Shown here one piece after another: positions 9,432-58,374 of a stretch of 64,000 nt of DNA. The stretch's first letter is position 1; every line of letters starts with the position of its first letter. The stretch is from the NCBI GenBank assembly GCA_016194905.1, contig JACQAP010000021.1, forward strand, positions 140,942-204,941. The letters run 5' to 3'. The notes under the pieces were generated by a model that saw nothing but the letters and a program-made list of their open reading frames with translations, was not told the DNA's origin and made no database searches. A program made the translations under genes and the position numbers. Source of the DNA: Betaproteobacteria bacterium (GTDB lineage Bacteria; Pseudomonadota; Gammaproteobacteria; Burkholderiales; JACQAP01).

Positions 9432-10118
9432 ATGACCCAGCCCTCCGCCATGGTTGACACCGTCGAGCAGTACTTCCAGTCCGCGCAGACTCCGTTGGAA
9501 GAAGCCTATCCCGGCGAGCGTCTGCTGTCCAAGGTCGGCCAGATGACCCGGTCGCTGCACGACAGTCTGCGCGAATTGGGCTACGACAAGGTCCTCGAGA
9601 AAGCAGCCGCGCAGATCCCCGATGCGCGCGATCGCATGTCGTACATCGCCAGCATGACCGAGAAAGCCGCCGAGCGCGCGCTGACCGCCACCGAAATCGC
9701 ACGACCGATCCAGGACGGACTTTCCAACGATGCGGCCAGTCTGGATGAACGTTGGCAGGAGTTGTTCGACGGGAAACTTTCGCTGGAACAGTTCAGGCAA
9801 CTGGTTGCCGATACCCGCCGATTCCTGACGCAAGTGCCGTCCCGGGCCGAGGCGACCAATGCCCAGCTGATGGAGATCATGATGGCCCAGGATTTCCAGG
9901 ACCTTACCGGTCAGGTGATCAAGCGGGTGACAGCCGTGACTCATGATCTCGAAAGCCAGCTCGTGCAGTTGCTGGTGGACAACGTTCCCTCCGGGCATCG
10001 CGCCGACGCGAATTCCCCCGGCCTCCTCAATGGCCCGGTCATCAAGGCCGATGGCCGTTCGGATGTCGTCACCGATCAGAAACAGGTCGACGATTTGCTG
10101 GAAAGCCTCGGATTCTAG
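9432..10118 (+). CDS. cheZ: CheY-P phosphatase CheZ
   Basis: 228 aa located after cheY. CheZ-type helical core ([12 protein letters not shown]) and C-terminal CheY-binding peptide [11 protein letters not shown]. Confidence 0.88.
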
Positions 10119-10147: not shown

Positions 10148-11473
10148 GTGAGCGCCGTTCTTCCAGAAAGTCCCGACGAATTCGAACAGCAACCGGACTA
10201 TCAGGGCTTCGTTCACGAACTTGCGACGCGCGTTTCAGGGCTCGGCAGGGAAGCGGCCGACATCGCGGGTTCGCTCGACGATGCAGTCCAGCTCGGCACC
10301 AATCAGGCCAAGGCATTCACCGGATTACGCGAAGAGGTCGGCCGCATGGTCGATTCAAATCTCGGCATCGAATCCGCGGTGGAGCACGCGGGGAAGATTT
10401 CCGCCGCAGCGCGCGGCACGGTCGAGCAGGTGGCGCAGGACGTAACGGTCATGAGCAGTGTGCTGGAGCAGGTATTGACGGCGGCAGAAGGCATTTCCCA
10501 AATCGCCTTTCAGACCCGTCTTGTTGCTTTCAACGCGGCGGTGGAGGCCAACCGCGTGGGCGAGGCCGGTCGCGGATTCGCGGTCGTGGCAGGTGCAGTG
10601 AAGGACCTTGCGCATCAGGTGGAGGAGGCCAGCAAGCGCATCATGAATACCGTTGGGGAACTGGGCAAGAAAGTCGAAGCGCTGGCCCGCGATATCTGCG
10701 ACGACGGCAGTTCGGGAGAGCGGGACTCCATTCAGGGCGCTTTTCGTGAGTTGCACGGCTGTATCGGCGCGGTGGCGCAAAGCGCACGGGACAACACCTC
10801 GATCTGCAATGCCGTTAACGAGTCCGTGGGGTCCTTTTCGCGCGAACTCGACCACACCGGCCGCTCGCTCGGGCGCGCCAGGGGGAGGGTCGATGAATTG
10901 CTGGGACTGAGCGAGAAACTGATCGAACTCACTGTCGACAGCGGGCTGGAAACCGAGGATACGCCCTACATTGAATTGGCCATCGAGACCGCGGCGAGGG
11001 TCGGACAGCTGTTCGAGCAGGCAGTGGATCGCGGCGAGATCACGCTCGACGATTTGTTCGACGAGGACTATAAGCCGATCCCCGGAACCGATCCTCAGCA
11101 GTACACCACGCACTTTCTCGCGCTTACCGATCGCGTCCTGCCACCGATCCAGGAACCGATGCTCGGCTTCAGTCCCAAGGTGGTTTACTGCGCCGCAGTG
11201 GATCGCAATACCTTCCTGCCGACGCATAACCGCAAGTTTGCCAAGCCGCAGGGCAAGGATCCGGTATGGAACGCGGCAAACTCCCGCAACCGGCGCATTT
11301 TCACCGATCGCACGGGCAAGGCGGCCGGCCGCAACCGCAAACGCTTTCTGCTGCAAAGCTATCGGCGCGACATGGGAGGCGGCCAGCATGCATTGATGAA
11401 GGACTTGTCAGCTCCGATCTGGGTAAAGGGGCGACATTGGGGAAATTTTCGAATCGCCTACCGGGTTGACTAG
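10148..11473 (+). CDS. soluble methyl-accepting chemotaxis protein with uncharacterised C-terminal domain
   Basis: No TM helices. MCP hairpin-tip motif [34 protein letters not shown]. About 170-aa conserved-looking C-terminal domain ([10 protein letters not shown]...RRDMGGG...GRHWG). GTG start. Confidence 0.75.
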
Positions 11474-11599
11474 CGCGAAGCGGAAAAGGGGGACTCCTGG
11501 GTCCTGCCCTTCCGAATTGGGCCGCAAACGCCCTCCTGTTTGTCGGATTGATCTGACGGCCCGCCCCTAATAATCGTAGCCATAGGAAATGGATATGCC

Positions 11600-12742
11600 A
11601 TGGCTGACGAAAACGATTTCGAACGAACAGAACCCGCATCCCCCCGACGGCTCGAACAAGCCCGCGAGGAAGGGCAGGTTGCGCGGTCGCAGGAACTCAA
11701 TACGTTTGCCCTGCTGGCCACGGTCGGGGCATCGATCTGGGTGTTGGGGGGCCAGCTTCTTTCCGGCCTGACCGGCCTGATGCGCAGCGGGCTCACGCTG
11801 TCCGCCGAGGACGGTTTCCGCGCGGAACAAATGGCGCGCATGCTGGGCCGGCACGGAAGCGCCGGCTTCATGACCATTGCACCGGTGCTCGCAGCGGCAT
11901 TTCTGGCCGCCCTGGTCGCGCCGCTGCTGTTGAACGGCTGGCTGTTCACGCTCAAGCCGTTGCAGCCGAATTTTTCCCGTCTCAACCCGTTCAGCGGCTT
12001 CGGTCGCATCTTCTCGGCCCACGGACTCGTGGAACTGGCCAAGGCAATCTCGAAAGTGCTCGTGGTGGGCGGAGTCGCGACCATGGTCATCTGGAACAGT
12101 CTCGATGCCGTCCTGTCGCTTTCGCAGGAAACTACCGCCAGCGCCACCAGGCATGCGGCGCGCCTGGTGGGCTGGACGCTGATTCTTATGGTCGGTGGCA
12201 TGGTGCTTATCGTCGCCATCGACGTGCCTTACCAGCTCTGGAACCACTACCGCAAGCTGCGTATGTCGCGCGCCGAGCTCAAGCGTGAAGCGAAAGAATC
12301 CGAAGGCGATCCGCAGATCAAGGCGCGCATCCGCAGCCTGCAACGCGAGGCAGCACGCAAACGCATGATGGCTGAAGTGCCGAAGGCCGATGTCGTCATC
12401 ACGAACCCGACGCACTACTCGGTGGCGTTGTCGTACAAGGAAAACTCCATGCGGGCGCCGCGCATCGTCGCCAAGGGCCAGGATCTCACCGCCATGCGCA
12501 TCCGCGAACTGGCGCAGGAACATCGCATACCGATCGTGGAGGCGCCGCCGCTCGCCCGCGCGCTCTATCGCCACACGGATCTCGGGGACGAAATTCCGGA
12601 AACACTCTATACGGCAGTGGCCGAGGTGCTGGCCTACGTATTCCAGTTGCGACGCTTCAACCTCGAAGGCGGTCGTGCGCCGCAGTTGCCGGGCGAAATC
12701 GTCGTTCCGGCCGACCTCGATCCTCAGCAAGGTAAATCGTGA
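11600..12742 (+). CDS. flhB: flagellar export gate/switch protein FlhB
   Basis: N-terminus MADENDFERTEPASPRRLEQAREEGQVARSQEL. Autocleavage site NPTHY. 380 aa. Confidence 0.92.
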   Translation: MADENDFERTEPASPRRLEQAREEGQVARSQELNTFALLATVGASIWVLGGQLLSGLTGLMRSGLTLSAEDGFRAEQMARMLGRHGSAGFMTIAPVLAAAFLAALVAPLLLNGWLFTLKPLQPNFSRLNPFSGFGRIFSAHGLVELAKAISKVLVVGGVATMVIWNSLDAVLSLSQETTASATRHAARLVGWTLILMVGGMVLIVAIDVPYQLWNHYRKLRMSRAELKREAKESEGDPQIKARIRSLQREAARKRMMAEVPKADVVITNPTHYSVALSYKENSMRAPRIVAKGQDLTAMRIRELAQEHRIPIVEAPPLARALYRHTDLGDEIPETLYTAVAEVLAYVFQLRRFNLEGGRAPQLPGEIVVPADLDPQQGKS

Positions 12743-14832
12743 TGGCTGCCGCCGCGGCTTCCGCGCAACGCCTGGCGATCCCGGCAAAGCATCTGAACGT
12801 GATGGCCGGGCCCGTGCTGATCATCCTGATCATGGGGATGATGGTGCTGCCGTTGCCGCCGTTCGCGCTCGACGTGCTGTTCACCTTCAACGTCGCGCTC
12901 TCGATCATGGTCATGCTGGTCGCACTCTATACCGTGCGGCCCCTCGATTTTTCTGTTTTCCCGACGGTGCTGCTGGTCACCACGCTGCTGCGCCTGTCGC
13001 TGAACGTCGCATCCACCCGGGTCGTGTTGCTGCAGGGCCATAGCGGTGGCGACGCCGCCGGCAAAGTCATCGAAGCCTTCGGCCATTTCATGATCGGCGG
13101 CAACTACACGGTCGGCCTCGTCGTGTTCATCATCCTGGTGGTGATCAATTTCGTCGTCGTTACCAAAGGTGCCGGCCGAATCGCGGAAGTCGGAGCACGC
13201 TTCACGTTGGATGCGATGCCCGGCAAGCAGATGGCGATCGATGCCGATCTGAATGCAGGGTTGATCGGCGAAGAGGCGGCACGCAAGCGTCGTGCGGAAA
13301 TATCACAGGAAGCGGACTTCTACGGCGCCATGGACGGCGCCAGCAAATTCGTTCGGGGCGACGCGATCGCCGGCATCCTGGTGATGTTGATCAACGTCGT
13401 CGGCGGCCTGGTGGTCGGCGTCATCCAGCATGACATGTCGATCGGAGATGCGGCGCACAACTACATTCTGCTGGCCATCGGTGACGGCCTGGTTGCGCAA
13501 ATTCCCGCGCTGGTGATCTCGGTGGCCGCGGGTATCGTCGTGAGCCGGGTGGGCTCGGATGAACCGATCGGCGAACAATTCGTGGGACAGCTGTTGCGCC
13601 GGCCCGAAGCCCTGTCGATCACGGCCGGCATCGTCGGCGCACTTGGCATCGTCCCCGGCATGCCACACATCGCTTTCCTGCTGCTGGCAGCCCTGATGGG
13701 CGGCATCGCCTATGCGATGCGCAAGATCCAGGCTGAAGAACCGGAGGCTCCTCAGGCTCCGCAGCCGACGGAGGCCAAAGCCCTCGAGGCGCAGGACGCG
13801 TCCTGGAGCGATGTCACCCATGTGGATACGCTCGGACTCGAAGTCGGCTATCGCCTGATCCCGCTGGTCGATCAGGCCCAGGACGGTGAGCTGCTGCGTC
13901 GGATCAAGGGCATTCGCCGCAAGTTCGCGCAGGAGATCGGCTTCCTGCCGCCGGCGGTGCATATCCGGGACAATCTGGAGCTCAAGCCAGGCGCCTATCG
14001 AATTGCACTGAAGGGCGTGGAGGTCGGCCGCGGCGACGCGTTGCCCGGGCAATTCCTGGCCATCAATCCCGGCCGCGTCAGCGGCACGCTGCAGGGCACG
14101 GTGACCGCCGATCCGGCGTTCGGACTGCCGGCGGTCTGGATCGAATCCGCCCAGCGCGAACACGCGCAAGTGTTGGGCTACACCGTCGTGGACGCGAGCA
14201 CGGTGGTCGCAACGCATCTGAATCATATCGTCCAGCAGCACGCCTCCGAACTCCTCGGCCGTCAGGAGGTACAGCAACTACTCGATCATCTCGCCAAGGA
14301 CGCGCCGAAGCTCGTCGAAGATCTGGTGCCCAAGATTGTTACGCTGGCCGTGCTGCAGAAGACCTTGCAATCGCTGTTGGAAGAGGGTGTGCACATCCGC
14401 GATATGCGCACCATCCTGGAGACCGCCGCCGAGCACGGCACGCGCACGCAGGATCCGCATGAACTTGCGGCGCAGGTTCGTATCGCGCTCGGCCGTGCCA
14501 TCGCACAGCAGATCGCGCCCGCCGGCAACGAAGTCCAGGTCGTGGCTTTGTCGCCCGATCTCGAACGCCTGCTCATCCAGGCCATGCAGACCGGCGGTTC
14601 GCCCGGCATCGAACCCGGCCTGGCCGACGCGCTGGCCGCCGAGGCCGCGACGGCGTCTGCCAAACTCGAGCAGCTCGGGCATTCGCCGGTATTGCTGGTC
14701 GCACCGCAACTGCGCGCGCCGCTGTCGCGCTTTCTGCGGCGCACGATTCCGCATCTGCGCGTCATCGCGCACACCGAAATTCCCGACAACCGCAAGATCC
14801 GCGTGGCTGCCATTCTCGGAGGTAGGTCATGA
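12739..14832 (+). CDS. flhA: flagellar export gate protein FlhA
   Basis: 697 aa. TM N-terminal half with FHFxxGG-type region (AFGHFMIGGNYTVGLVVF). FlhA cytoplasmic domain. Start overlaps the flhB stop. Confidence 0.95.
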   Translation: MMAAAAASAQRLAIPAKHLNVMAGPVLIILIMGMMVLPLPPFALDVLFTFNVALSIMVMLVALYTVRPLDFSVFPTVLLVTTLLRLSLNVASTRVVLLQGHSGGDAAGKVIEAFGHFMIGGNYTVGLVVFIILVVINFVVVTKGAGRIAEVGARFTLDAMPGKQMAIDADLNAGLIGEEAARKRRAEISQEADFYGAMDGASKFVRGDAIAGILVMLINVVGGLVVGVIQHDMSIGDAAHNYILLAIGDGLVAQIPALVISVAAGIVVSRVGSDEPIGEQFVGQLLRRPEALSITAGIVGALGIVPGMPHIAFLLLAALMGGIAYAMRKIQAEEPEAPQAPQPTEAKALEAQDASWSDVTHVDTLGLEVGYRLIPLVDQAQDGELLRRIKGIRRKFAQEIGFLPPAVHIRDNLELKPGAYRIALKGVEVGRGDALPGQFLAINPGRVSGTLQGTVTADPAFGLPAVWIESAQREHAQVLGYTVVDASTVVATHLNHIVQQHASELLGRQEVQQLLDHLAKDAPKLVEDLVPKIVTLAVLQKTLQSLLEEGVHIRDMRTILETAAEHGTRTQDPHELAAQVRIALGRAIAQQIAPAGNEVQVVALSPDLERLLIQAMQTGGSPGIEPGLADALAAEAATASAKLEQLGHSPVLLVAPQLRAPLSRFLRRTIPHLRVIAHTEIPDNRKIRVAAILGGRS

Positions 14833-16127
14833 ACGTAAAGCAATTCTTCGCCACCAATGCGCGCGAGGCGCTGCACCAGGTCAAGCGCGAAATCGGCGCC
14901 GACGCCGTCATCCTGTCAAATCGTCGCGTCGAGGGTGGCGTCGAGATTCTCGCAATACCGCATGCCGACGCACGCGCCTTCGATAGTGCGGCCCGCGAAC
15001 CGGTGGTGGCCAAGAAGCCTGCCGTCGTGCGCACGGCGATGAACAACCCCCCGGTACAGAATTCCCAGACGGTCAAGGTAGAGATGCCCATGCCCGCACA
15101 CGCGCAGCGGGCGCGAGCCGCTGCTCAATCGAAGCCGGCGCAGCCGGTACCACCGGTTGCCGCGGCTCCGATCCTGGCGCCGGCCACCGAGCAGATCGCG
15201 CGCACCGTAATCCGTGAAATCCAATCGATGCGCGGATTGATCAACGAACGGCTCTCCGGTCTGATGTTCGGGGACATGCAGCGCCGCGAACCGGACAAGC
15301 TGCGCATGATGTCGACGCTGCTCGCCGGCGGCTTCAGTCCGGCGTTGTCGCGCCGCTTGCTGGAAAAGTCGCCGGCCGATCGCGGCATGACGGCTCTGCG
15401 TGGCTGGATCAAGAAAGCGCTCGACAAGAATCTCATCACCAGTACCGCGGACGACATCGTGACCAAGGGCGGTGTTTACGCGCTGCTCGGTCCCACCGGC
15501 GTGGGCAAGACCACGACCACCGCCAAGCTGGCTGCGCGTTGCGTAGTGCGCCACGGCGCGGGAAAGCTGGCGCTGCTCACCACGGACAACTACCGGGTCG
15601 GTGCACACGAACATCTGCGCATCTATGGGCGCATTCTCGGCGTGTCGGTGCATGCGGTGCGCGATGCCGCCGATCTGGAGATCGCACTGTCCGAACTGCG
15701 CAACAAGCACATGGTGCTGATCGATACGGTCGGCATGAGCCAGAAGGATCAGCATGTGGCCGAACAGGTTGCCATGTTCAGTGGCCAGGGTGAAGGTGTC
15801 AAACGCCTGTTGCTGTTGAACGCAACCTGCCAGGGCGACACGCTCGAGGACGTCGTGAATTCCTACAAGGGCAAAGGGCTGGCGGGATGCGTCATCACCA
15901 AGACCGACGAGGCGGCCAGCCTTGGCGCGGTGATCGACGCGGTGATCCGTCACAGGCTGCCGGTGCACTACGTTGCCAACGGACAGCGGGTGCCGGAAGA
16001 CATTCATCCGGTAAACCGCGAATACCTGCTGCACCGCGCCCTGTCCGCGGCGAAAGACAACCCGATCCGTGCTCTGTCGGAGCAGGACATTCCCGCCGCC
16101 ATGATGGGCGCGGAATTCGCCATCTGA
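14829..16127 (+). CDS. flhF: flagellar SRP-type GTPase FlhF
   Basis: FlhF N-terminus MNVKQFFATNAREALHQVKREIGADAVILSNRRV. G1 motif GPTGVGKTTT, plus DTVGMSQ. Start overlaps the flhA stop. Confidence 0.9.
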   Translation: MNVKQFFATNAREALHQVKREIGADAVILSNRRVEGGVEILAIPHADARAFDSAAREPVVAKKPAVVRTAMNNPPVQNSQTVKVEMPMPAHAQRARAAAQSKPAQPVPPVAAAPILAPATEQIARTVIREIQSMRGLINERLSGLMFGDMQRREPDKLRMMSTLLAGGFSPALSRRLLEKSPADRGMTALRGWIKKALDKNLITSTADDIVTKGGVYALLGPTGVGKTTTTAKLAARCVVRHGAGKLALLTTDNYRVGAHEHLRIYGRILGVSVHAVRDAADLEIALSELRNKHMVLIDTVGMSQKDQHVAEQVAMFSGQGEGVKRLLLLNATCQGDTLEDVVNSYKGKGLAGCVITKTDEAASLGAVIDAVIRHRLPVHYVANGQRVPEDIHPVNREYLLHRALSAAKDNPIRALSEQDIPAAMMGAEFAI

Positions 16128-16137
16128 GGCGGTGTTG

Positions 16138-17031
16138 ATGAGCCTACAGCCATCCGACCAGGCCGAAGGACTGCGGCGCCTGCTCGGCAAGCAGATCCCG
16201 AAAGTGATCACATTGGTCTCCGGCGGCGCGCGCATCGGCAAAACCTGCGCCGCCATCAATCTCGCGGTGGCGATCGCGCAGGCGGGACGCAGCGTGATGC
16301 TACTCGACGAGAACCGCGGTCCGCGCAACGTGACCGCTACTCTCGGCATCGATACCGTGGCCGACATGGCCGATACCGTGCGCGGCGGCCGCGCGCTCGA
16401 GCAGACACTTGTGCCCGGACCGGAGGGGTTGGTCATTCTCCCGGCCGGACGTGGCGTTCAGGCGCTGGCCGGCATTGACGAGGGTGGCCGCGACAGGCTG
16501 GTCGAAGGATTTGCGCGAGTCGGCGGCGCTCTCGATTTCATTCTGGTCGATACCGCAGCGGGCACATCGAGCCGCCTGCTGCCGCTAGCCCATCCCGAGC
16601 AGGAAACCATTCTGATTTCCACCAGCAGCGGAACGGGCCAGGCCAATGCGCTGGGCATGATCAAGCTCATGCATCGCGAGCTTGGCGCGTGCAATTTGCA
16701 TCTGCTGGTTTCGATGACACGCTCGGAAGCCGAAGGCGAGGCGACCTACTACAACCTGGCCAACGTAGCCGATCGGCATCTGGGTGCCGGCCTGGAGTTT
16801 TTCGGCGTCGTTCCTTTAGACGAGCGCATTGCCCAGTCGGGCCATGTCGGACGCGCTGCGGTCGAGATGTTCCCGCACGCGCCCAGTTCCGTGCAATGGC
16901 GGCGGCAGGCGCAGGAAATCATGCAGTGGCCGCTGCCGCGGGAAGCGGCGGAGGGGATGGATCGTTTCGTTCAGCGTCTGATCCTGGGCAGTCGCGTCCA
17001 GGTGGGCACAGTTGCGCTCTCGGCGGCATGA
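16138..17031 (+). CDS. flhG: MinD/ParA-family flagellar number regulator FlhG (FleN) with atypical Walker A
   Basis: Position after flhF. P-loop SGGARIGKT (16219-16245) instead of the deviant Walker A SGKGGVGKT. ATG 16138 has GAGG 8 nt upstream. GTG 16132 is an alternative start. Confidence 0.8.
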   Translation: MSLQPSDQAEGLRRLLGKQIPKVITLVSGGARIGKTCAAINLAVAIAQAGRSVMLLDENRGPRNVTATLGIDTVADMADTVRGGRALEQTLVPGPEGLVILPAGRGVQALAGIDEGGRDRLVEGFARVGGALDFILVDTAAGTSSRLLPLAHPEQETILISTSSGTGQANALGMIKLMHRELGACNLHLLVSMTRSEAEGEATYYNLANVADRHLGAGLEFFGVVPLDERIAQSGHVGRAAVEMFPHAPSSVQWRRQAQEIMQWPLPREAAEGMDRFVQRLILGSRVQVGTVALSAA

Positions 17032-18018: not shown

Positions 18019-18061
18019 AAAGTGCTGCCGCGCATTTAAAAAGTGCTGCTGCGCACTTAAA
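18019..18061. repeat. tandem 21-22 bp repeat, each unit containing a palindrome
   Basis: AAGTGCTGCCGCGCATTTAAA / AAGTGCTGCTGCGCACTTAAAG. The second unit has a perfect AAGTGC-N6-GCACTT. Confidence 0.4.
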
Positions 18062-36353: not shown

Positions 36354-36463
36354 GAGGGACGAGGGACTGGAGAACAGGGACTAGGGGCTAGGGACTAGAG
36401 GGACCTACACCCTTCACTTATTCATTCCTTCACTGTTCACCGTTCACTCTTCACTGATTTCAC
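36354..36463. repeat. intergenic double heptamer array (GGGAC-type units, then TTCAC-type units)
   Basis: GAGGGAC GAGGGAC TGGAGAAC AGGGAC TAGGGGC TAGGGAC TAGAGGGAC, then CTTCACT TATTCAT TCCTTCAC TGTTCAC CGTTCAC TCTTCAC TGATTTCAC. The array ends at the flgF ATG. Confidence 0.8.
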
Positions 36464-38081: not shown

Positions 38082-38085
38082 AGGC

Positions 38086-38157
38086 GGGACTCAGGACTCG
38101 GGACTCAGGACTGAGTGATTTGTGCCGTGGTCGGCTTTTACTGAGTCCTCAGTCCTT
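38086..38157. repeat. intergenic inverted heptamer-array element (GGACTCA/GGACTCG units)
   Basis: GGGACTCAGGACTCGGGACTCAGGACTGAGT ... 24 nt ... CTGAGTCCTCAGTCCTT. The arms are complementary. Confidence 0.75.
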
Positions 38158-44116: not shown

Positions 44117-44893
44117 TCACTTCTGAAGTATTTCCAGTGCCGCAGATGCGCCGGAGGTCAGCAGTTTCTCCATCGGCACCGTCAGGTAGGGCAGCACCAG
44201 CGCCAGCATGAAAAATCCCAGCAGCAACGTGATCGGAAACCCGACTGCGAAAATATTGAGTTGAGGTGCGGTGCGCGTCAGCACGCCTAATGCGAGGTTG
44301 GTAATGAGCAGCGCCGCGACGACCGGCAATGCCAGTGTCAGCCCGGCTGCGAACATTTGACCGCCCCAGGACACCAGACTGAACGCAGCATGTGCGCCGA
44401 ACAGATCGGTGCCGATCGGCAGCATGGCAAAACTTTGTGCGAGCGTGGAGATCATCAGCAGGTGCCCATTCAGCGCCAGGAAGAACAGCACCGCCAGCAG
44501 GCTCATGAGCTCTGCAATTACGGGCGCGTTGTTTCCGTGCTGCGGATCGAAGAATGTCGCGAATCCCAGGCCCATCTGCAATCCGATCAGTTCGCCCGCC
44601 GTATCGACTGCCGCGAACGCGATACGCATCGCCAGACCCATCGCCGTGCCAATGACGATCTGCTGGATCAACACCAGCAGGCCTTCGTATGAGGATGGCG
44701 ATACGTCGGGAATGGGGCCGGCGAGCGGCGCGATCACGAGCGTCAGAGCCAATCCGAGACCGAGCCGAATGCGCCGCGGTACACCGCGATTGCCAAACAC
44801 CGGCGCCGTCGAGACCAGCGCGAGGATCCGCGCCATCGGGAATGCGAAGGAGGCGAGAAAGGCGGCTAGTTGGGTGGAAGTGAGGGAGAGCAT
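44117..44893 (-). CDS. fliR: flagellar export gate protein FliR
   Basis: 258-aa polytopic membrane protein of FliR type (FLASFAFPMARILALVSTAPVFG). Confidence 0.9.
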   Translation of the reverse strand: MLSLTSTQLAAFLASFAFPMARILALVSTAPVFGNRGVPRRIRLGLGLALTLVIAPLAGPIPDVSPSSYEGLLVLIQQIVIGTAMGLAMRIAFAAVDTAGELIGLQMGLGFATFFDPQHGNNAPVIAELMSLLAVLFFLALNGHLLMISTLAQSFAMLPIGTDLFGAHAAFSLVSWGGQMFAAGLTLALPVVAALLITNLALGVLTRTAPQLNIFAVGFPITLLLGFFMLALVLPYLTVPMEKLLTSGASAALEILQK

Positions 44894-44896
44894 GAT

Positions 44897-45024
44897 GGGA
44901 TAGGGGCTAGGGATCAGGGGCTAGGGGCTGGAAGAAAAGCGCTGACAAATTATGTTAAGGCAGTAAAGGCCTGAAGACGTGTTCCCCTAGCACCTAGTCC
45001 CTCACCCCTAGCCCCTAGCCCCTG
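44897..45024. repeat. intergenic inverted heptamer-array element (GGGGCTA units) inside the fliQ-fliR junction
   Basis: Left arm TAGGGGC TAGGGAT CAGGGGC TAGGGGC. 53-nt core. Right arm CCCCTAG CACCTAG TCCCTCA CCCCTAG CCCCTAG CCCCTG. Confidence 0.85.
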
Positions 45025-45028
45025 TCTT

Positions 45029-45298
45029 TCAGCCAATCATGAACGGCAGGTTCTCCAGCAGCCGCCGCATGTAGTCCACCATCATCGTGATCATCCACGG
45101 GCCGGCAAGGACCAGCATGACAAGGATCGCGATGAGCTTGGGAATGAACGACAAGGTCATTTCATTGATCTGTGTGGCCGCCTGAAACACGCTGACCAGA
45201 AGGCCGACGGCGAGCGCGGAAAGGAGCAGCGGCGCCGATACCAGCAGCGTCAATTCGAGCGCGTGGCGGCCGATGGTCATTACGGATTCCGGTGTCAC
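45029..45298 (-). CDS. fliQ: flagellar export gate protein FliQ
   Basis: 89 aa with two TM helices. [25 protein letters not shown] is FliQ type. Confidence 0.92.
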
Positions 45299-48605: not shown

Positions 48606-48693
48606 GACACGCCCTCAGTGTGGGATGCAGCCATTATTCAGGCCGGGGGTCTCGATCCATCGCTGGAATAGAGCGGCAAAAAATACCTAATTC

Positions 48694-48823
48694 GAGGGGC
48701 AGGGGCTAGGGGTGAGGGACTAGGGGCTAGGGAAGTGCGAAAGGAATCTCGAGCAACGCCGGAGAAGATTGACAGAAGACAAATCCGAATCGAAATTCTT
48801 GCCCTAGCCCCTAGCCCCTAGCC
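48694..48823. repeat. intergenic inverted heptamer-array element (GGGGCTA units) between fliK and fliL
   Basis: Left arm GAGGGGC AGGGGC TAGGGGT GAGGGAC TAGGGGC TAGGGAA. 67-nt core. Right arm CCCTAG CCCCTAG CCCCTAG CC. Confidence 0.85.
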
Positions 48824-48842
48824 TGTCGCGTCGCCCGCAGCG

Positions 48843-49988
48843 CTACGCGAACGTATCCACCAGACCGCTGCCTCGACGCAGAGGACTGCCGAGGCGTGGC
48901 TGGATCGGAGGTTCCGGTGTCTGGCCGGCGCGTGCGTCCGATCGCGTGCTGCCGTGGGACGGCCGGCCGGAATCGCCCGATCCATCGGTGTTGCCCGCAG
49001 TTCGGGCATCGACCGTGGTGTTGCCCAGCGCGATGCCGTTCTCCAGCAGCATTTCCCGCAATCGCGGCAGCGCGGATTCGATCGCCTCGCGGGTGGCGGC
49101 GTGTGCGGCGCTGAATTGCACCGACGCGGACGCTTGCGCACCCTGGTCGCCGGTCAGCACGAGTGTGACCTCGATCGGCCCGAGATCCGGGGGATTCAGG
49201 CGGATTTCGGCAGATTGCACATTGTTCTTGGCCATCCATACAACGCGGCTGGAAAAGCCATCATCCCAGGTGGGCGAGCCAAACGGCTGGGCCAGTTGTT
49301 CCACGTGCGCCACAACGCTCGCAGTGTTCGCCGATTGCGATGGCGCCACCGCGTGACCCGGCGTGCTGCCCACCGTCGGCAGCTGGAAGGCGGGTTCCTG
49401 CCGGCGCTCCGAGAGTTCGGCCTTGAGAACTGGAACGGCTACGGGTTCGTGCGCGGCAGTTTTTGCGACCGTCACAGCGGACCCGGCGTCCGCGTCATGT
49501 CGGGCATCGGTTGCGCGCAGCGAGTTGGCCGTGTTTTGCATGTCGGCCTGCGGCATGCTCTTGCCGCCATCGCTGCGCACGCGGGCGGAAATTGCGCTGT
49601 CGCGAGCGATGACCGGCAATGTGGTGGAGTCGGTCGCCTTGGCCGGCGCGGTCGAGTCGACCGGTGCGAGTGAAGCGGGCATCGGTTGGAGGGCGATCTG
49701 TGCAGCGGTCAGTTGTTGCGGATGGAGATCGGCCTTACCGGCGGCGATGGCGTCGAGCAGCGCGGTGGGATCGCACGCGGGCGTGTCGCCACTGGCATTT
49801 TTTGTGATTTCGACCGGTTCGCATGCTTGTTCCGGACTCGTTGTGCGTCCGATCCCGGCGCCGAGAAGTCCGGCGAAATCGAGGTCGCCGGCGTCGGCAT
49901 CCCCGGGATCTGCTGTCGCTGCGGGACCACCCGCAGAGTGGGTCGGGGAAGCCGTCCGTGCCGGATTCGCGATCATGAGTGTGTTCAT
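48843..49988 (-). CDS. fliK: flagellar hook-length control protein FliK
   Basis: Pro/Ala-rich N-terminal part. C-terminal Flg_hook-like AEIRLNPPDLGPIEVTLVL...ESALPRLREMLLENG. Located between fliJ and fliL. Confidence 0.75.
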   Translation of the reverse strand: MNTLMIANPARTASPTHSAGGPAATADPGDADAGDLDFAGLLGAGIGRTTSPEQACEPVEITKNASGDTPACDPTALLDAIAAGKADLHPQQLTAAQIALQPMPASLAPVDSTAPAKATDSTTLPVIARDSAISARVRSDGGKSMPQADMQNTANSLRATDARHDADAGSAVTVAKTAAHEPVAVPVLKAELSERRQEPAFQLPTVGSTPGHAVAPSQSANTASVVAHVEQLAQPFGSPTWDDGFSSRVVWMAKNNVQSAEIRLNPPDLGPIEVTLVLTGDQGAQASASVQFSAAHAATREAIESALPRLREMLLENGIALGNTTVDARTAGNTDGSGDSGRPSHGSTRSDARAGQTPEPPIQPRLGSPLRRGSGLVDTFA

Positions 49989-52557: not shown

Positions 52558-52686
52558 AGTCAGTGACTGGTGACTAGTTGTTGATGACTGGAAAAGGCAG
52601 AGCGTCGCGATCTGTTGATAGTCGTATTGCTGTGTGAATTCAGGTCGTCATTTCTTGGTTTTGCCAGTCACCTGTCACCGGTTACC
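52558..52686. repeat. intergenic inverted heptamer-array element (GTGACTG units) between fliG and fliH
   Basis: Left arm AGTCAGTGACTGGTGACTAGTTGTTGATGACTGG. 71-nt core. Right arm GCCAGTCACCTGTCACCGGTTACC. Confidence 0.75.
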
Positions 52687-55773: not shown

Positions 55774-56097
55774 ATGGACCGCATATCAGTGGAAAGCGTA
55801 TTGAGCCAGATCCGCGCGATGCAGGAAATCGCCGCCGGAGGCCAGAAATCCCCCGTGACCGGGGCGCCCGGCAAGGTGGACTTCGCGCAAATGCTGCGAA
55901 CGTCGCTGGATCAGGTCAGCGGCGCCGAACAGCAGGCAAACAATCTGTCGCAGGCTTTCGAGAAAGGGGATCCGAGCGTGAACCTGCAGGACGTCATGAT
56001 CTCGATGCAGAAGGCCAATATCTCCTTTCAGACTGTGGTCCAGGTGCGCAATCGTGTGGTGGCGGCCTATCAGGACATGATGAACATGCAGATGTAG
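55774..56097 (+). CDS. fliE: flagellar hook-basal body protein FliE
   Basis: 107 aa. C-terminal MISMQKANISFQTVVQVRNRVVAAYQDMMNMQM is typical FliE. Confidence 0.88.
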   Translation: MDRISVESVLSQIRAMQEIAAGGQKSPVTGAPGKVDFAQMLRTSLDQVSGAEQQANNLSQAFEKGDPSVNLQDVMISMQKANISFQTVVQVRNRVVAAYQDMMNMQM

Positions 56098-56098
56098 T

Positions 56099-56216
56099 AC
56101 TAGGGGCTAGGGATGAGGGACTAGGGGGGTAGGGAACTACGTCTTCATACCTTAACTGCCTTGCTCGCTTGTCAGAGCTTTTTTTCTAGCCCCTAGCCCC
56201 TAGCCCCTCTTCCCTG
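56099..56216. repeat. intergenic inverted heptamer-array element (GGGGCTA units) between fliE and ycgR
   Basis: Left arm TAGGGGC TAGGGAT GAGGGAC TAGGGGGG TAGGGAA. The core is the reverse complement of the 44931-44983 core. Right arm CTAGCCC CTAGCCC CTAGCCCCT. Confidence 0.85.
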
Positions 56217-56221
56217 ATCTT

Positions 56222-57001
56222 CTATTTCTTCATCCTGAAATTGCGTGAGCGCTCCAGAAACATGATGTAGCGTTGCACCAGGTTTTCGTTCGAGGGTGCC
56301 AGATTCAAAAACTGGCAGCCGCAGCGGCGAAAGCTCAGTCCGTTTTTCAGCGGCGTGTCGAACGAGTTGCGCACTTCCAGCGAGACCACCAGCGTACCGA
56401 CTTCCGGCAGCCCGATGCGGCAGTTCTTGAATACATCACCGATCTGGAAGCCGGTTGCGTCATGATTGTCCATCAGCGCAACCCCGCCGATACTGATGTC
56501 CAGCACGATGGTTTCAGCCTGCACGCCGGCACCGCGGTCCGGCAGCGGCAACGTGCAGATCAGTGGTTTCGTGATCGGCGTGGCAATACGGTAGTGCTCG
56601 CGGCGCTGGATGCGTACCAGAGTACCGGGCAGCGGAATGCGCAGCGCGGGGCGGCCCTGGTAACGCACTTCGCGAATGTCGCTGGTCGTGAATTTCACCT
56701 TGACCTGGTCGTGCGAGGTCACCAGCAACACTTTCTTTGCAGCGAGCAGCCGTTTGTTTGCTGCTGCGTCAGGGGAGACGTCGAGCACGACTTCCGCCGT
56801 GTCAGACATCACGGCCAGCAACGATGTCAGCGCGAAATCGGCACCGCCATCCAGATAAGCAGTGACCAGTTGCGTGTTCTGCATGATCTTCTTCAGCACG
56901 AAAACGATCTCGGCCGGCTGACTCACGGCGAAGCGGGCATCGTCGTCAAGCTGATTATCCCGGCCCTGCGGCTGGGCGCGGTTTGCGTCCTCTTGTTTCA
57001 T
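56222..57001 (-). CDS. ycgR: c-di-GMP-binding flagellar brake protein YcgR (PilZN + PilZ)
   Basis: PilZ motifs RREHYR and DISIGGVAL. YcgR-type N-terminal domain. ATG 57001 preferred, because the listed 57070 start would overlap the upstream gene. Confidence 0.8.
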   Translation of the reverse strand: MKQEDANRAQPQGRDNQLDDDARFAVSQPAEIVFVLKKIMQNTQLVTAYLDGGADFALTSLLAVMSDTAEVVLDVSPDAAANKRLLAAKKVLLVTSHDQVKVKFTTSDIREVRYQGRPALRIPLPGTLVRIQRREHYRIATPITKPLICTLPLPDRGAGVQAETIVLDISIGGVALMDNHDATGFQIGDVFKNCRIGLPEVGTLVVSLEVRNSFDTPLKNGLSFRRCGCQFLNLAPSNENLVQRYIMFLERSRNFRMKK

Positions 57002-57026: not shown

Positions 57027-57317
57027 TTATCTGTTCGGTGCGGGCGGGGCTGCGAGCCCTTGTTCGACACGATATAGCCAGGCGAGCAATTCCGCCACTG
57101 CCACGTAAAGTTGGGGAGGTATGTGCTGGTCGAGGTCTACGTGCATGAGAAGATTGACGAGTTCCGGCGATTCGTGCACGTATACGCCGGCTTCCCGCGC
57201 GCGAGCGATGATCGCTTCGGCGATGAGGCCATTACCCTTGGCGACGACCTGTGGTGCCGACTGGCCCTCGCGATAGGCAAGCGCCACCGCCGCGTGGTCA
57301 GGTCGTTTCGGGACCAT
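57027..57317 (-). CDS. FlhB C-terminal-domain-like protein (EscU/YscU/HrcU family fragment-type)
   Basis: 96 aa aligning to the post-cleavage FlhB domain: AVALAY...APQVVAKGNGLIAEAII..A.EAGVYV.E.PELV..L...IPPQLYVAVAELL. Has PDH where FlhB has NPTH. Confidence 0.8.
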   Translation of the reverse strand: MVPKRPDHAAVALAYREGQSAPQVVAKGNGLIAEAIIARAREAGVYVHESPELVNLLMHVDLDQHIPPQLYVAVAELLAWLYRVEQGLAAPPAPNR

Positions 57318-58374
57318 GACTTACCTCGAGTGCATGAATCGGTATGCCGGACGTATTGAAGCGATTTGCCAGCGCCGGCGCCTGTTCGCGCAGACGTCGG
57401 GCGTGTTGTTCGGAATCCGCGATGAGCCGCAGTTTTGCGCCGTTCGCGTCCAGTTCGATCCTCGCAAGCAGTTCCCCGATATTGGGCAGCGTCAGTTTCA
57501 ATTCGGTACGCCATGCTCTCGGTACTTCGCGGTCTTCTTCTGCGTGGGACGCACTGTCACCCACCTGCCATTCCATGAATTGGCCGGGCCATACCTGCCC
57601 GCGCCACGCGACGTGGCCGGATTCGAGCGCGCCGAGTTGCTGACGGATGATCGGGAAGGTGTCGGGATGCGCCGGTGAGCGCGCAACCTGCTCGGTTTGC
57701 GAAGGCGGATCCGCCTCGGCGCCATGCGCTGACTCCGTCGGCATTGCATCGGCGCGACGGATGGCTTCTTCGGAAACGGGAAAGGCCTGCAGTTCCATCA
57801 TTGCAGCGGCGGCTGCGGGCTGCATCGGCGCAAGCTTGCCTTGCGGTTCGCGTTGCAATTGCGCGGTCGAGCGTGTGCCCAGAACCCATTGCGCCTGGTG
57901 AGACTCGTAAAAAAGACCACTGAGTGCGAGCGCTTCGCGAAGAAGCGTTGCGGCCTGCGGTGCTTCCGGAACGCGCGACTGAAAGACTGGAATCGCGGCA
58001 CGCGCGGCGGGTTCATCGGGCGCTTCGATCTGGAACTCCCGGAGCATTGCCAGCAACTTACCGGCATCGCTGAGCTTCGATTCGGCCTGGTCGTTCGCGC
58101 GCTCGATTCCCAGCAAGGCAAAAGTCGGCCGCGGATTGTCGTTCACATAAACCATGCGCAGCAAATCGCCGGGGCGGGTGCCGTCGGGAAGCTTGAAGTC
58201 GTAGCTGCGACCGCGCACCGACACGATATAGCCGGCGCGGGATTGTTGTTCGACGCGTCCGTCGATCGGTTGTCCGGGCCGCAACGGAGGCAGTTCGCGG
58301 TCGCCCGCCACAAGCGAAGTGCGCACGGCGCCGACCAGCAGGCGCAATCGGGTAAGTGCCTCCGGACGAATCAT
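57298..58374 (-). CDS. second FliK-like hook-length control protein
   Basis: C-terminal Flg_hook-like segment (ELKLTLPNIGELLARIELDANGAKLRLIADSEQHARRL). Overlaps the flhB-like gene by 20 nt. The N-terminal part is not recognisable. Confidence 0.55.
   Translation of the reverse strand: MIRPEALTRLRLLVGAVRTSLVAGDRELPPLRPGQPIDGRVEQQSRAGYIVSVRGRSYDFKLPDGTRPGDLLRMVYVNDNPRPTFALLGIERANDQAESKLSDAGKLLAMLREFQIEAPDEPAARAAIPVFQSRVPEAPQAATLLREALALSGLFYESHQAQWVLGTRSTAQLQREPQGKLAPMQPAAAAAMMELQAFPVSEEAIRRADAMPTESAHGAEADPPSQTEQVARSPAHPDTFPIIRQQLGALESGHVAWRGQVWPGQFMEWQVGDSASHAEEDREVPRAWRTELKLTLPNIGELLARIELDANGAKLRLIADSEQHARRLREQAPALANRFNTSGIPIHALEVSHGPETT

Follow-up and report, generated by a model that had tools for sequence, protein, structure and literature searches.

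We have studied a set of intergenic elements in the flagellar gene clusters of an uncultured Burkholderiales bacterium, taking as our window the whole stretch of 64,000 nucleotides (nt) that runs from position 140,942 to position 204,941 on the forward strand of contig JACQAP010000021.1 (assembly GCA_016194905.1). In this window, fliQ and fliR are separated by a gap of 135 nt that is filled by an element, E3 (44897-45024), made of two inverted arrays of tandem heptamers around a core of about 53-56 nt. On the forward strand its left arm consists of four G-rich heptamers (TAGGGGC TAGGGAT CAGGGGC TAGGGGC), and its right arm of five to six C-rich ones (CCCCTAG CACCTAG TCCCTCA CCCCTAG CCCCTAG CCCCTG). 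An earlier note on this DNA had described E3 as two inverted arrays of heptamers that might form a long stem by pairing, and had placed five further 7-nt elements in other flagellar gaps; sequence and fold agree with that description, and the five are present in those gaps, each with its locus-specific units. We refer to the six window sites as E1 to E6 (Table 1). The elements are real, and they belong to a class of intergenic repeats that is widespread, has been described before, is poorly understood and is not specific to the flagellum. What is new here are the units, the host lineage and the coexistence of several unit classes in one genome.

Within the window, Tandem Repeats Finder (TRF) detects period-7 arrays at five of the six element sites (E1-E4 and E6) and nowhere else, the arms of E5 being short and degenerate and falling below its threshold. 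An autocorrelation at lag 7, the signature anticipated for such arrays, is the only one enriched in the window: among lags 4-12, 18 high-scoring windows fall on lag 7 and none on any other lag. All six elements are intergenic relative to the annotated genes; their first arm is rich in G or in purines, and the C-rich one adjoins the start codon. A 7-nt unit with a tract of three or four G is found in E1, E3, E4 and E6, while the heptamers of E2 and E5 are devoid of G-tracts. E1 represents what we call type B, in which a (TTCACNN)n array abuts the ATG of flgF.

An assembly artefact is excluded, because two independent Logan assemblies are 100% identical to the window across E1-E4 and because relatives carry equivalent elements at the same junctions. 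The autocorrelation at lag 7, together with these identical assemblies, likewise disposes of a chance origin. Coding potential was also considered and rejected, since a 7-nt period breaks every reading frame. One further Logan contig (L001, positions 1-35 against window 48799-48832) ends within the right arm of E4 with at least one extra CTAGGGG unit, which points either to a break of the assembly at the repeat or to unit numbers that vary within the sample.

Table 1. The elements, their parts and the genes flanking E3 (window numbering)
Feature	Position	Strand	Remarks
E3, type element, fliQ-fliR spacer hairpin	44897-45021	-	Predicted fold, -67.2 kcal/mol, z -3.8
E3 arm, G-rich on + strand, (TAGGGGC)n	44897-44929		TRF period 7, 4.7 copies; canonical G-quadruplex motif 44897-44920
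E3 core	44930-44983		Homologous to E6 core, opposite orientation
E3 arm, C-rich on + strand, (CCCCTAG)n	44984-45024		TRF period 7, 5.7 copies
E1, flgE-flgF	36354-36458	+	(AGGGACT)n, then CTACACCC, then (TTCACNN)n
E2, flgG-flgH	38082-38155	+	(GGACTCA)n left arm 38085-38112; complementary right arm 38140-38155
E4, fliK-fliL	48694-48823	-	(AGGGGCT)n / (CCCTAGC)n pair, from fliK stop codon to conserved fliL upstream block
E5, fliG-fliH	52558-52680	-	GTGACTG-type arms 52560-52591 and 52664-52680
E6, fliE / ycgR-like gene (convergent)	56099-56210		E3-type copy, core homology
G-quadruplex motifs	36377-36402, 44897-44920, 44999-45022, 48696-48718, 56103-56129, 56190-56214	Both strands counted	Motif scan
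fliQ, upstream cistron	45029-45298	-	NCBIfam equivalog TIGR01402, 4.9e-34
fliR, downstream cistron	44117-44893	-	NCBIfam equivalog TIGR01400, 3.6e-70

Predicted folds and genomic setting

E3 is predicted to form a hairpin of ~126 nt, and none of 200 shuffled sequences folds as well. Its stem would leave unpaired only the 6 nt past the fliQ stop codon and the 3 nt ahead of the fliR ATG. Hairpins are also significant for E2 (-37.3 kcal/mol, z -3.3), E4 (-56.3 kcal/mol, z -3.4) and, on the minus strand, E6 (-51.9 kcal/mol, z -3.4), so that the stems that were expected from the earlier note are recovered by folding at these sites as well as at E3; E5 stands at z -2.1, and E1 (z -1.4) is not significant as a hairpin. 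The sequence CCCTATCCCATCATG precedes the coding region of fliR, and for fliR, fliH and flgF the stretch from the right arm to the start codon contains no Shine-Dalgarno sequence.

A scan for intrinsic terminators found none at the elements, with a loop limit of 8 nt that hairpins with large loops would escape, and no T-run lies 3' of the stems of E1-E3 and E5. A scan for consensus promoters and terminators gave nothing at the elements, and Rfam yielded no match for them at gathering thresholds and no bacterial family at E-value thresholds either. Two sub-threshold Rfam matches to the plant miRNA precursor MIR408 were seen (44881-45031 with 35.6 bits and 56088-56235 with 26.6 bits, for a gathering score of 64), and these reflect a long-hairpin shape only.

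The flagellar regulon makes up most of the window, and the elements are confined to its flg/fli structural operons. The flagellar genes flgNMA, flgB-L, fliR-L, fliK-F, fliE, fliTSD and fliC lie at 31.8-62.7 kb, whereas the flhBAFG-fliA and mot/che operons of the window have tight junctions and no arrays; neither were arrays found in the 5.6 kb of this genome that we could add beyond the window. Over this sample of ~70 kb in total, 6 of the 12 spacers of at least 60 nt in flg/fli structural operons contain an element, versus 0 of 15 elsewhere (Fisher p 0.003; spacers were counted by hand from the gene map, the structural set being mostly intra-operonic and the other mostly promoter-bearing).

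The position of two of the elements relative to transcription units deserves a comment. A block running from GAATTAGGYATTTWTTGCCGCTCTATTC to GAATAATGGCTGCATCC, 5' of fliL (window ~48606-48690, minus strand), is kept in all the relatives that we compared, with or without E4, and is probably the fliL promoter/operator. If so, E4 stands at the end of the fliF-K unit and outside the fliL-R transcript. Being ahead of this putative promoter and between convergent genes, respectively, E4 and E6 would both be located at the ends of transcription units and not inside a transcript.

Junction occupancy and unit turnover in related genomes

The FliR protein of the window is 82-89% identical to proteins from metagenome contigs and from metagenome-assembled genomes (MAGs) labelled "Burkholderiales bacterium", and its identity to the Sulfuricella and Nitrosospira proteins is 56-58%. 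For comparison we took the orthologous clusters from eight related MAGs, whose FliR is 68-86% identical, and from Sulfuricella denitrificans as the single outgroup, within a set of 141 loci (L-numbers below are locus labels). In the outgroup the fliQ-fliR gap measures 10 nt, in line with the earlier claim that both genes are normally adjacent, and fliG and fliH overlap; such tight junctions indicate that the spacers are specific to the lineage studied here. Arrays are found at the same flg/fli junctions in seven of the eight related MAGs, mostly as inverted pairs, and the recurrently occupied junctions are fliQ-fliR, fliG-fliH, fliK-fliL, flgE-flgF, flgF-flgG and flgG-flgH. The one exception is L003, which has no arrays and shows spacers of 33-109 nt at these junctions.

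The junctions are the same but the units are different. GGGGCTA is found in the window and in L008, GAGGGNC (e.g. GAGGGGC) in L004 and L008, CGTGACNN with periods of 8-9 nt in L006 and L009, CGTGAAT in L008, and GGACAGA/TCTGTCC in L010. GTGACTG occupies fliG-fliH in both the window and L004, where the ortholog of E5 agrees with it in unit type and, in part, in its core, and TTCACNN arrays abut start codons in the window (E1), L004, L006, L009 and L140. The fliQ-fliR spacers of six species are predicted to form hairpins of -40 to -101 kcal/mol that are built from unrelated units and span nearly the whole spacer, with unpaired tails of 0-9 nt except for one of 47 nt. When arms are swapped between species in silico, the matrix of duplex energies is block-diagonal by unit class, which means that the two arms of each element always match while the class differs between clades. 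The hairpin is not essential, since L003 and L010 have none between fliQ and fliR.

No change in unit number was found between strains that are 99.7-99.99% identical (L004/L005/L132 and L008/L133), and phase-variable contingency loci can be discarded on that timescale.

Several local arrangements were observed along the way. The flgE-flgF spacer of L004 (18576-18890, 313 nt) contains an array pair with an 8-nt period (GTGATTGA... / ...TAATTACC) and also a near-perfect palindrome of ~100 nt (GGGTACTCCGGGCTGCGCCAGGGTATCCCGGAGGGAG...), that is, a second and different hairpin element nested at the same junction. The sequence GATCACCC lies directly ahead of the fliR ATG in both L003 (9937-10001) and L140 (6276-6458, with thirteen TTCACNN units), and the L003 spacer, of 63 nt, may derive by decay from an arm of TTCAC type. 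In L010, (GGACAGA)n follows fliG and (TCTGTCC)n precedes fliR (2012-2067 and 9965-9996), ~8 kb apart in one operon and with no local pair, and ~5.6 kb of non-flagellar genes (10830-16471, encoding a PDZ protein and HTH regulators) without arrays separate fliR from flgL.

The recurrent occupation of the junctions could be taken to mean that the hairpins are positively selected regulators that set flagellar subunit stoichiometry through partial termination, processing by RNase III/E or differential mRNA decay, and that they are kept where the upstream product is needed in larger amount (FlgE far above FlgF, FliG above FliH, FliQ4:FliR1, the stoichiometries being those of the Salmonella flagellum). 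Reoccupation of the junctions in all but one of the eight MAGs despite complete replacement of the sequence, the maintained complementarity of the arms, the concentration of elements in structural-operon spacers and the invariance of the arrays between close strains all speak for it. Nevertheless, the occupied junctions are those that have any spacer at all in the array-free L003, and permissive sites would fit equally well; flgF-flgG (~5:24) and flgG-flgH (~24:26) are occupied though their upstream product is not needed in excess; the flh, mot and che operons are devoid of elements; L003 and L010 do without the fliQ-fliR hairpin; and, as described below, the class is not flagellar in other genomes. 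We consider both the regulatory function and its link to upstream excess to be unlikely.

At least some of the elements have been copied and are not independent products of slippage. The evidence for this is twofold. The core of E3, in reverse complement, aligns globally to that of E6 with a score of 40, when shuffled sequences give 4.0 +/- 2.7 with a maximum of 20 and 0 of 2000 reach 40. Moreover, a G-rich and a TTCAC array are joined by the 13-mer CTACACCCTTCAC at three different junctions in three species (flgE-flgF in the window, flgF-flgG in L004 and fliQ-fliR in L140), and this 13-mer has no further occurrence in the 141 loci. The other pairs of cores among E1-E6, that of E4 included, are unrelated. 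A blastn search of E3 against the PLSDB plasmids gave no match, its arms being possibly masked by the low-complexity filter.

A widespread repeat class and its polarity

A scan for CTAGGGGCTAGGGGCTAGGG, i.e. (CTAGGGG)3, over 185,579 species-representative genomes returned at least 120 stretches from Cyanobacteria, Acidobacteriota, Planctomycetes, Gemmatimonadetes, Chloroflexi, Gamma-, Beta- and Alphaproteobacteria, and others. Flagellar genes are present in only one of 120 stretches among the matches listed. A betaproteobacterial MAG shows the same architecture between the gene of a PhyH dioxygenase and one of a hydantoinase operon, and Thiohalocapsa shows it four times, close to ispG and further housekeeping genes. 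On these matches, with their metabolic loci, we reject the view that the class is specific to flagella, and the idea that the elements are a family that punctuates flagellar operons finds no support, all the more as the flh, mot and che operons of this very window lack them. Nor is the inverted form new for proteobacteria, as had been supposed: 70-75 convergent inverted GGGAATC pairs are known per Xanthomonas genome (Rehm et al., 2015, PMC4692102). A literature search on the unit strings themselves brought up only primer noise.

The arrays follow a strict polarity. Among the matches listed, all 26 pairs of opposite-type arrays at most 150 nt apart have the G-rich array first and none the C-rich one (binomial p 3e-8); of the 16 adjacent pairs within the lineage, 14 are G-skew-first, and of the other two one is a boundary artefact and one consists of two arrays belonging to a single arm. 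Single arrays among the matches listed are nearer to the gene on the 5' side of the G-rich strand in 64 of 81 cases, whatever the orientation of that gene, with a median distance of 10 nt on this side and of 96 nt on the other. No array lies inside an open reading frame among the matches listed. For 58 single arrays of that same set, the far-side spacers show significant complementarity to their array (mean z -2.4, Wilcoxon p 7.6e-8), which suggests that the doublet hairpin is the basic unit and that singles are decayed doublets, in parallel to the argument made for REPINs (PMC3116915).

Three candidate sources of the G-first polarity can be proposed: common descent of an element with terminal inverted repeats, avoidance of an unpaired C-rich arm on which Rho could load while either strand is transcribed, or reiterative addition to 3' ends followed by joining. 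The last of these would make the elements scars of break repair, in which short repeats are added reiteratively to both 3' ends, in a telomere-like manner or by slippage, and the ends are then joined, leaving G-first inverted arrays around filler DNA. In the 26 pairs listed and the 14 lineage pairs the G-strand indeed runs 5' to 3' towards the centre, as in a head-to-head fusion of telomeres; E1, flgF-flgG of L004 and fliQ-fliR of L140 have different units on their two sides; and most cores are mutually unrelated. We find this origin most improbable all the same, because the common core of E3 and E6 and the recurrent type-B junction motif point to the copying of whole elements, the elements are inherited at orthologous sites instead of arising anew, the window offers no candidate enzyme, and the polarity can equally be explained by common descent or by selection.

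The closest known relatives are the GGGAATC arrays of Xanthomonas and the GGGGA(C/T)T arrays of Nostoc, G-rich heptamers described by Rehm et al. (2015, PMC4692102), who report few paired arrays for Nostoc. That class is excluded from open reading frames, its pairs are kept at orthologous sites while varying in length and sequence, and its G-rich strand is found at most 50 nt 3' of a stop codon (when it is the coding strand) or 5' of a start codon (when it is the non-coding one) (PMC4692102). The elements described here share with it a 7-nt unit with a tract of three or four G, the intergenic location, the polarity of the G-rich strand, the convergent pairs able to form stem-loops and the retention at orthologous sites. 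They differ in their units (GGGGCTA/GGGACTA) and in their host, a betaproteobacterial MAG lineage; some copies share a conserved core; and they are intra-operonic, flush with stop and start codons. In addition, the window also contains the non-G-rich arrays GGACTCA, GTGACTG and TTCACNN, with an identical architecture.

This last difference bears on the proposal, put forward for the Xanthomonas GGGNATC arrays, that the G-rich arms act as DNA or RNA G-quadruplexes that modulate transcription or translation, with which the hairpin would merely compete. The six canonical motifs of the 64-kb window (four tracts of at least three G with loops of 1-7 nt, both strands) all lie inside the arms of E1, E3, E4 and E6, and heptamers related to those found here do form G-quadruplexes in vitro, with a preference for four units (PMC4692102). 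Yet architecture and polarity are unchanged in E2, in E5 and in the CGTGAC/TTCAC arrays of relatives, none of which has a G-tract, and these non-G-rich classes, along with the CGTGACNN arrays of 8-9-nt period, tell us that a G-quadruplex cannot be what all the arrays have in common. The C-rich arm is fully complementary and only 50-70 nt away, so that the duplex should win over the quadruplex, and Rehm et al. found no function or regulatory role for these arrays (PMC4692102). A G-quadruplex function is improbable in our opinion.

The short tandemly repeated repetitive (STRR) sequences of cyanobacteria are likewise tandem heptamers in non-coding DNA, and (CTAGGGG)n arrays occur in cyanobacteria such as Calothrix, Nostoc, Tolypothrix and Kamptonema. 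However, the host here is not a cyanobacterium, the unit is unlike GGGGA(C/T)T, and classical STRR units have different sequences. MITEs (miniature inverted-repeat transposable elements) are evoked by E3 and E6, which share arms and core; the cores of the other four elements are unrelated.

The comparison with repetitive extragenic palindromic (REP) sequences goes further. REP stem-loops stabilise the upstream mRNA, and the elements resemble intercistronic stem-loops such as the malE-malF REP. REPINs are REP doublets that form hairpins (Bertels and Rainey, 2011, PMC3116915), and the likeness extends to the extragenic location, to the build of two inverted repeats and a spacer with a predicted hairpin in single-stranded DNA or mRNA, and to singlets that look like decayed doublets. 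On the other hand, each REP is an imperfect palindrome, while the arms described here are direct tandem arrays with no internal palindrome beyond CTAG; no gene for a REP-associated tyrosine transposase (RAYT) is known for this lineage; and the copies are far more diverse than a REPIN population.

The TAACTGA heptamers of Beggiatoaceae, cyanobacteria and Bacteroidetes are patchily distributed across phyla, lie within a few nt of start codons, and have few canonical ribosome-binding sites in the spacers that bear them (MacGregor, 2015, PMC4679880). They resemble the present arrays in their closeness to start codons without canonical ribosome-binding sites, and depart from them in that they are direct (169 versus 1 indirect), form no hairpins and have an AT-rich unit. 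For these repeats an RNA-binding protein has been suggested (PMC4679880), and our arrays could by analogy be multivalent sites for ribosomal protein S1, a cold-shock protein or CsrA controlling the translation of the adjacent gene. Pyrimidine-rich arrays that abut start codons without a Shine-Dalgarno sequence would suit this idea, as would the GGA/AGGGA motifs in which some left arms are rich, and the similar scarcity of ribosome-binding sites beside TAACTGA arrays (PMC4679880). We nonetheless judge it quite improbable: a binder that recognises one sequence cannot account for the many unrelated units found in the same position, base pairing and not a single-stranded state is predicted for the arms, and the polarity holds for any gene orientation, which is unexpected of a purely mRNA-level site.

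Origin and possible roles of the elements

We lean towards viewing the elements as REPIN/MITE-like palindromic repeats that have settled at operon junctions, where they are tolerated and would act as intercistronic stem-loops once transcribed. A palindromic element would have entered a few non-overlapping flg/fli junctions in an ancestor of the lineage, the doublet being copied or seeded into a short spacer. Its arms would have grown and homogenised through slipped-strand replication with their complementarity retained, and the elements would persist for long at flg/fli junctions without gene overlap while their units turn over. Once transcribed, an element would adopt an extended stem-loop occupying almost all of the spacer, and such a fold may place the upstream stop codon and the downstream start codon a few nt apart at the base of the helix, much like the ancestral junction of ~10 nt. 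We propose that insertion between coupled genes is tolerated because of this mimicry.

The anatomy, the predicted folds, the conserved occupancy of junctions, the turnover of units, the polarity and the E3/E6 core homology are observed, and we infer transcription through the elements, effects on mRNA stability or translation and the mechanism of copying. In the transcript, the hairpin could shield the 3' end of the upstream cistron as REP sequences do, serve as a substrate for RNase III, and hide the start region of those downstream genes that lack a Shine-Dalgarno sequence (fliR, fliH and flgF). A hidden start might in turn make the expression of the downstream gene, for instance that of fliR relative to fliQ, lower or dependent on coupling. 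The roles in mRNA processing, stability and differential expression that the earlier note had offered as candidates are plausible in this framework.

Several observations weigh against the interpretation of the elements as mobile palindromes acting as intercistronic stem-loops. The polarity rule is independent of gene orientation, which counts against a strictly RNA-level role. E1 does not fold significantly, GTGAC-type arms pair through 5-bp blocks only, and the fliQ-fliR hairpin is missing from two of the MAGs. Sense and antisense folding energies, compared in search of RNA-only G-U pairing, show no consistent asymmetry, so that nothing marks RNA over DNA as the level that matters. As to mobility, no target-site duplication is seen by eye at the flanks of E3 and E6, the boundaries of the elements being uncertain, the window has neither a transposase gene nor one for a RAYT, and JGI metagenomes gave 0 matches to ACGTCTTCANNCCTTNACTGCCTT, the core pattern of E3 and E6. 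The MITE-like mobile family that had been suggested earlier has some backing in the homology of the E3 and E6 cores and in the recurrence of CTACACCCTTCAC, the cores of the remaining elements being unrelated.

A more daring interpretation is that inverted short-repeat arrays constitute one element type across phyla, that an undescribed mechanism imposes the strict rule of a 5' G-arm, and that these arrays have been recruited here as interchangeable hairpin spacers that tune the ratios between flagellar cistrons. The rule could then come from a shared mode of generation (addition of repeats to 3' ends or a dedicated mobilising enzyme) or from a universal constraint on the exposure of the C-rich arm. 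We consider this interpretation distinctly unlikely.

Heptamer arrays are abundant in many bacterial genomes and their purpose is a long-standing puzzle, for which fliQ-fliR provides a compact test case: a junction that is tight in the outgroup is filled in related species by hairpins of unrelated units. Any explanation has to account for the G-first arm, for singles that are decayed doublets and for an occupancy of junctions that is kept while units turn over. Should the ratios between cistrons indeed be set by these hairpins, operons would possess in them a general means, open to evolution, of adjusting their internal expression; otherwise, the locus shows how translationally coupled junctions can be invaded by palindromic repeats without harm.

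The rest of the window deserves a brief description. The genes flhC, motB, cheY, cheZ, MCP, flhB, flhA, flhF, flhG and fliA are found at 4-18 kb, signalling genes and a TonB-receptor gene occupy 18-31 kb, and the sizeable open reading frames are flagellar, chemotaxis, signalling or transport genes throughout. A palindromic unit of 21 nt, AAAGTGCTGCCGCGCACTTAA, is present in two copies at 18019-18061, 3' of fliA, and bears no relation to the heptamer family. Finally, two genes of the window encode a FliK/Flg_hook C-terminal domain, one in the fliF-K operon (48843-49988) and one beside fliT (57298-58374).

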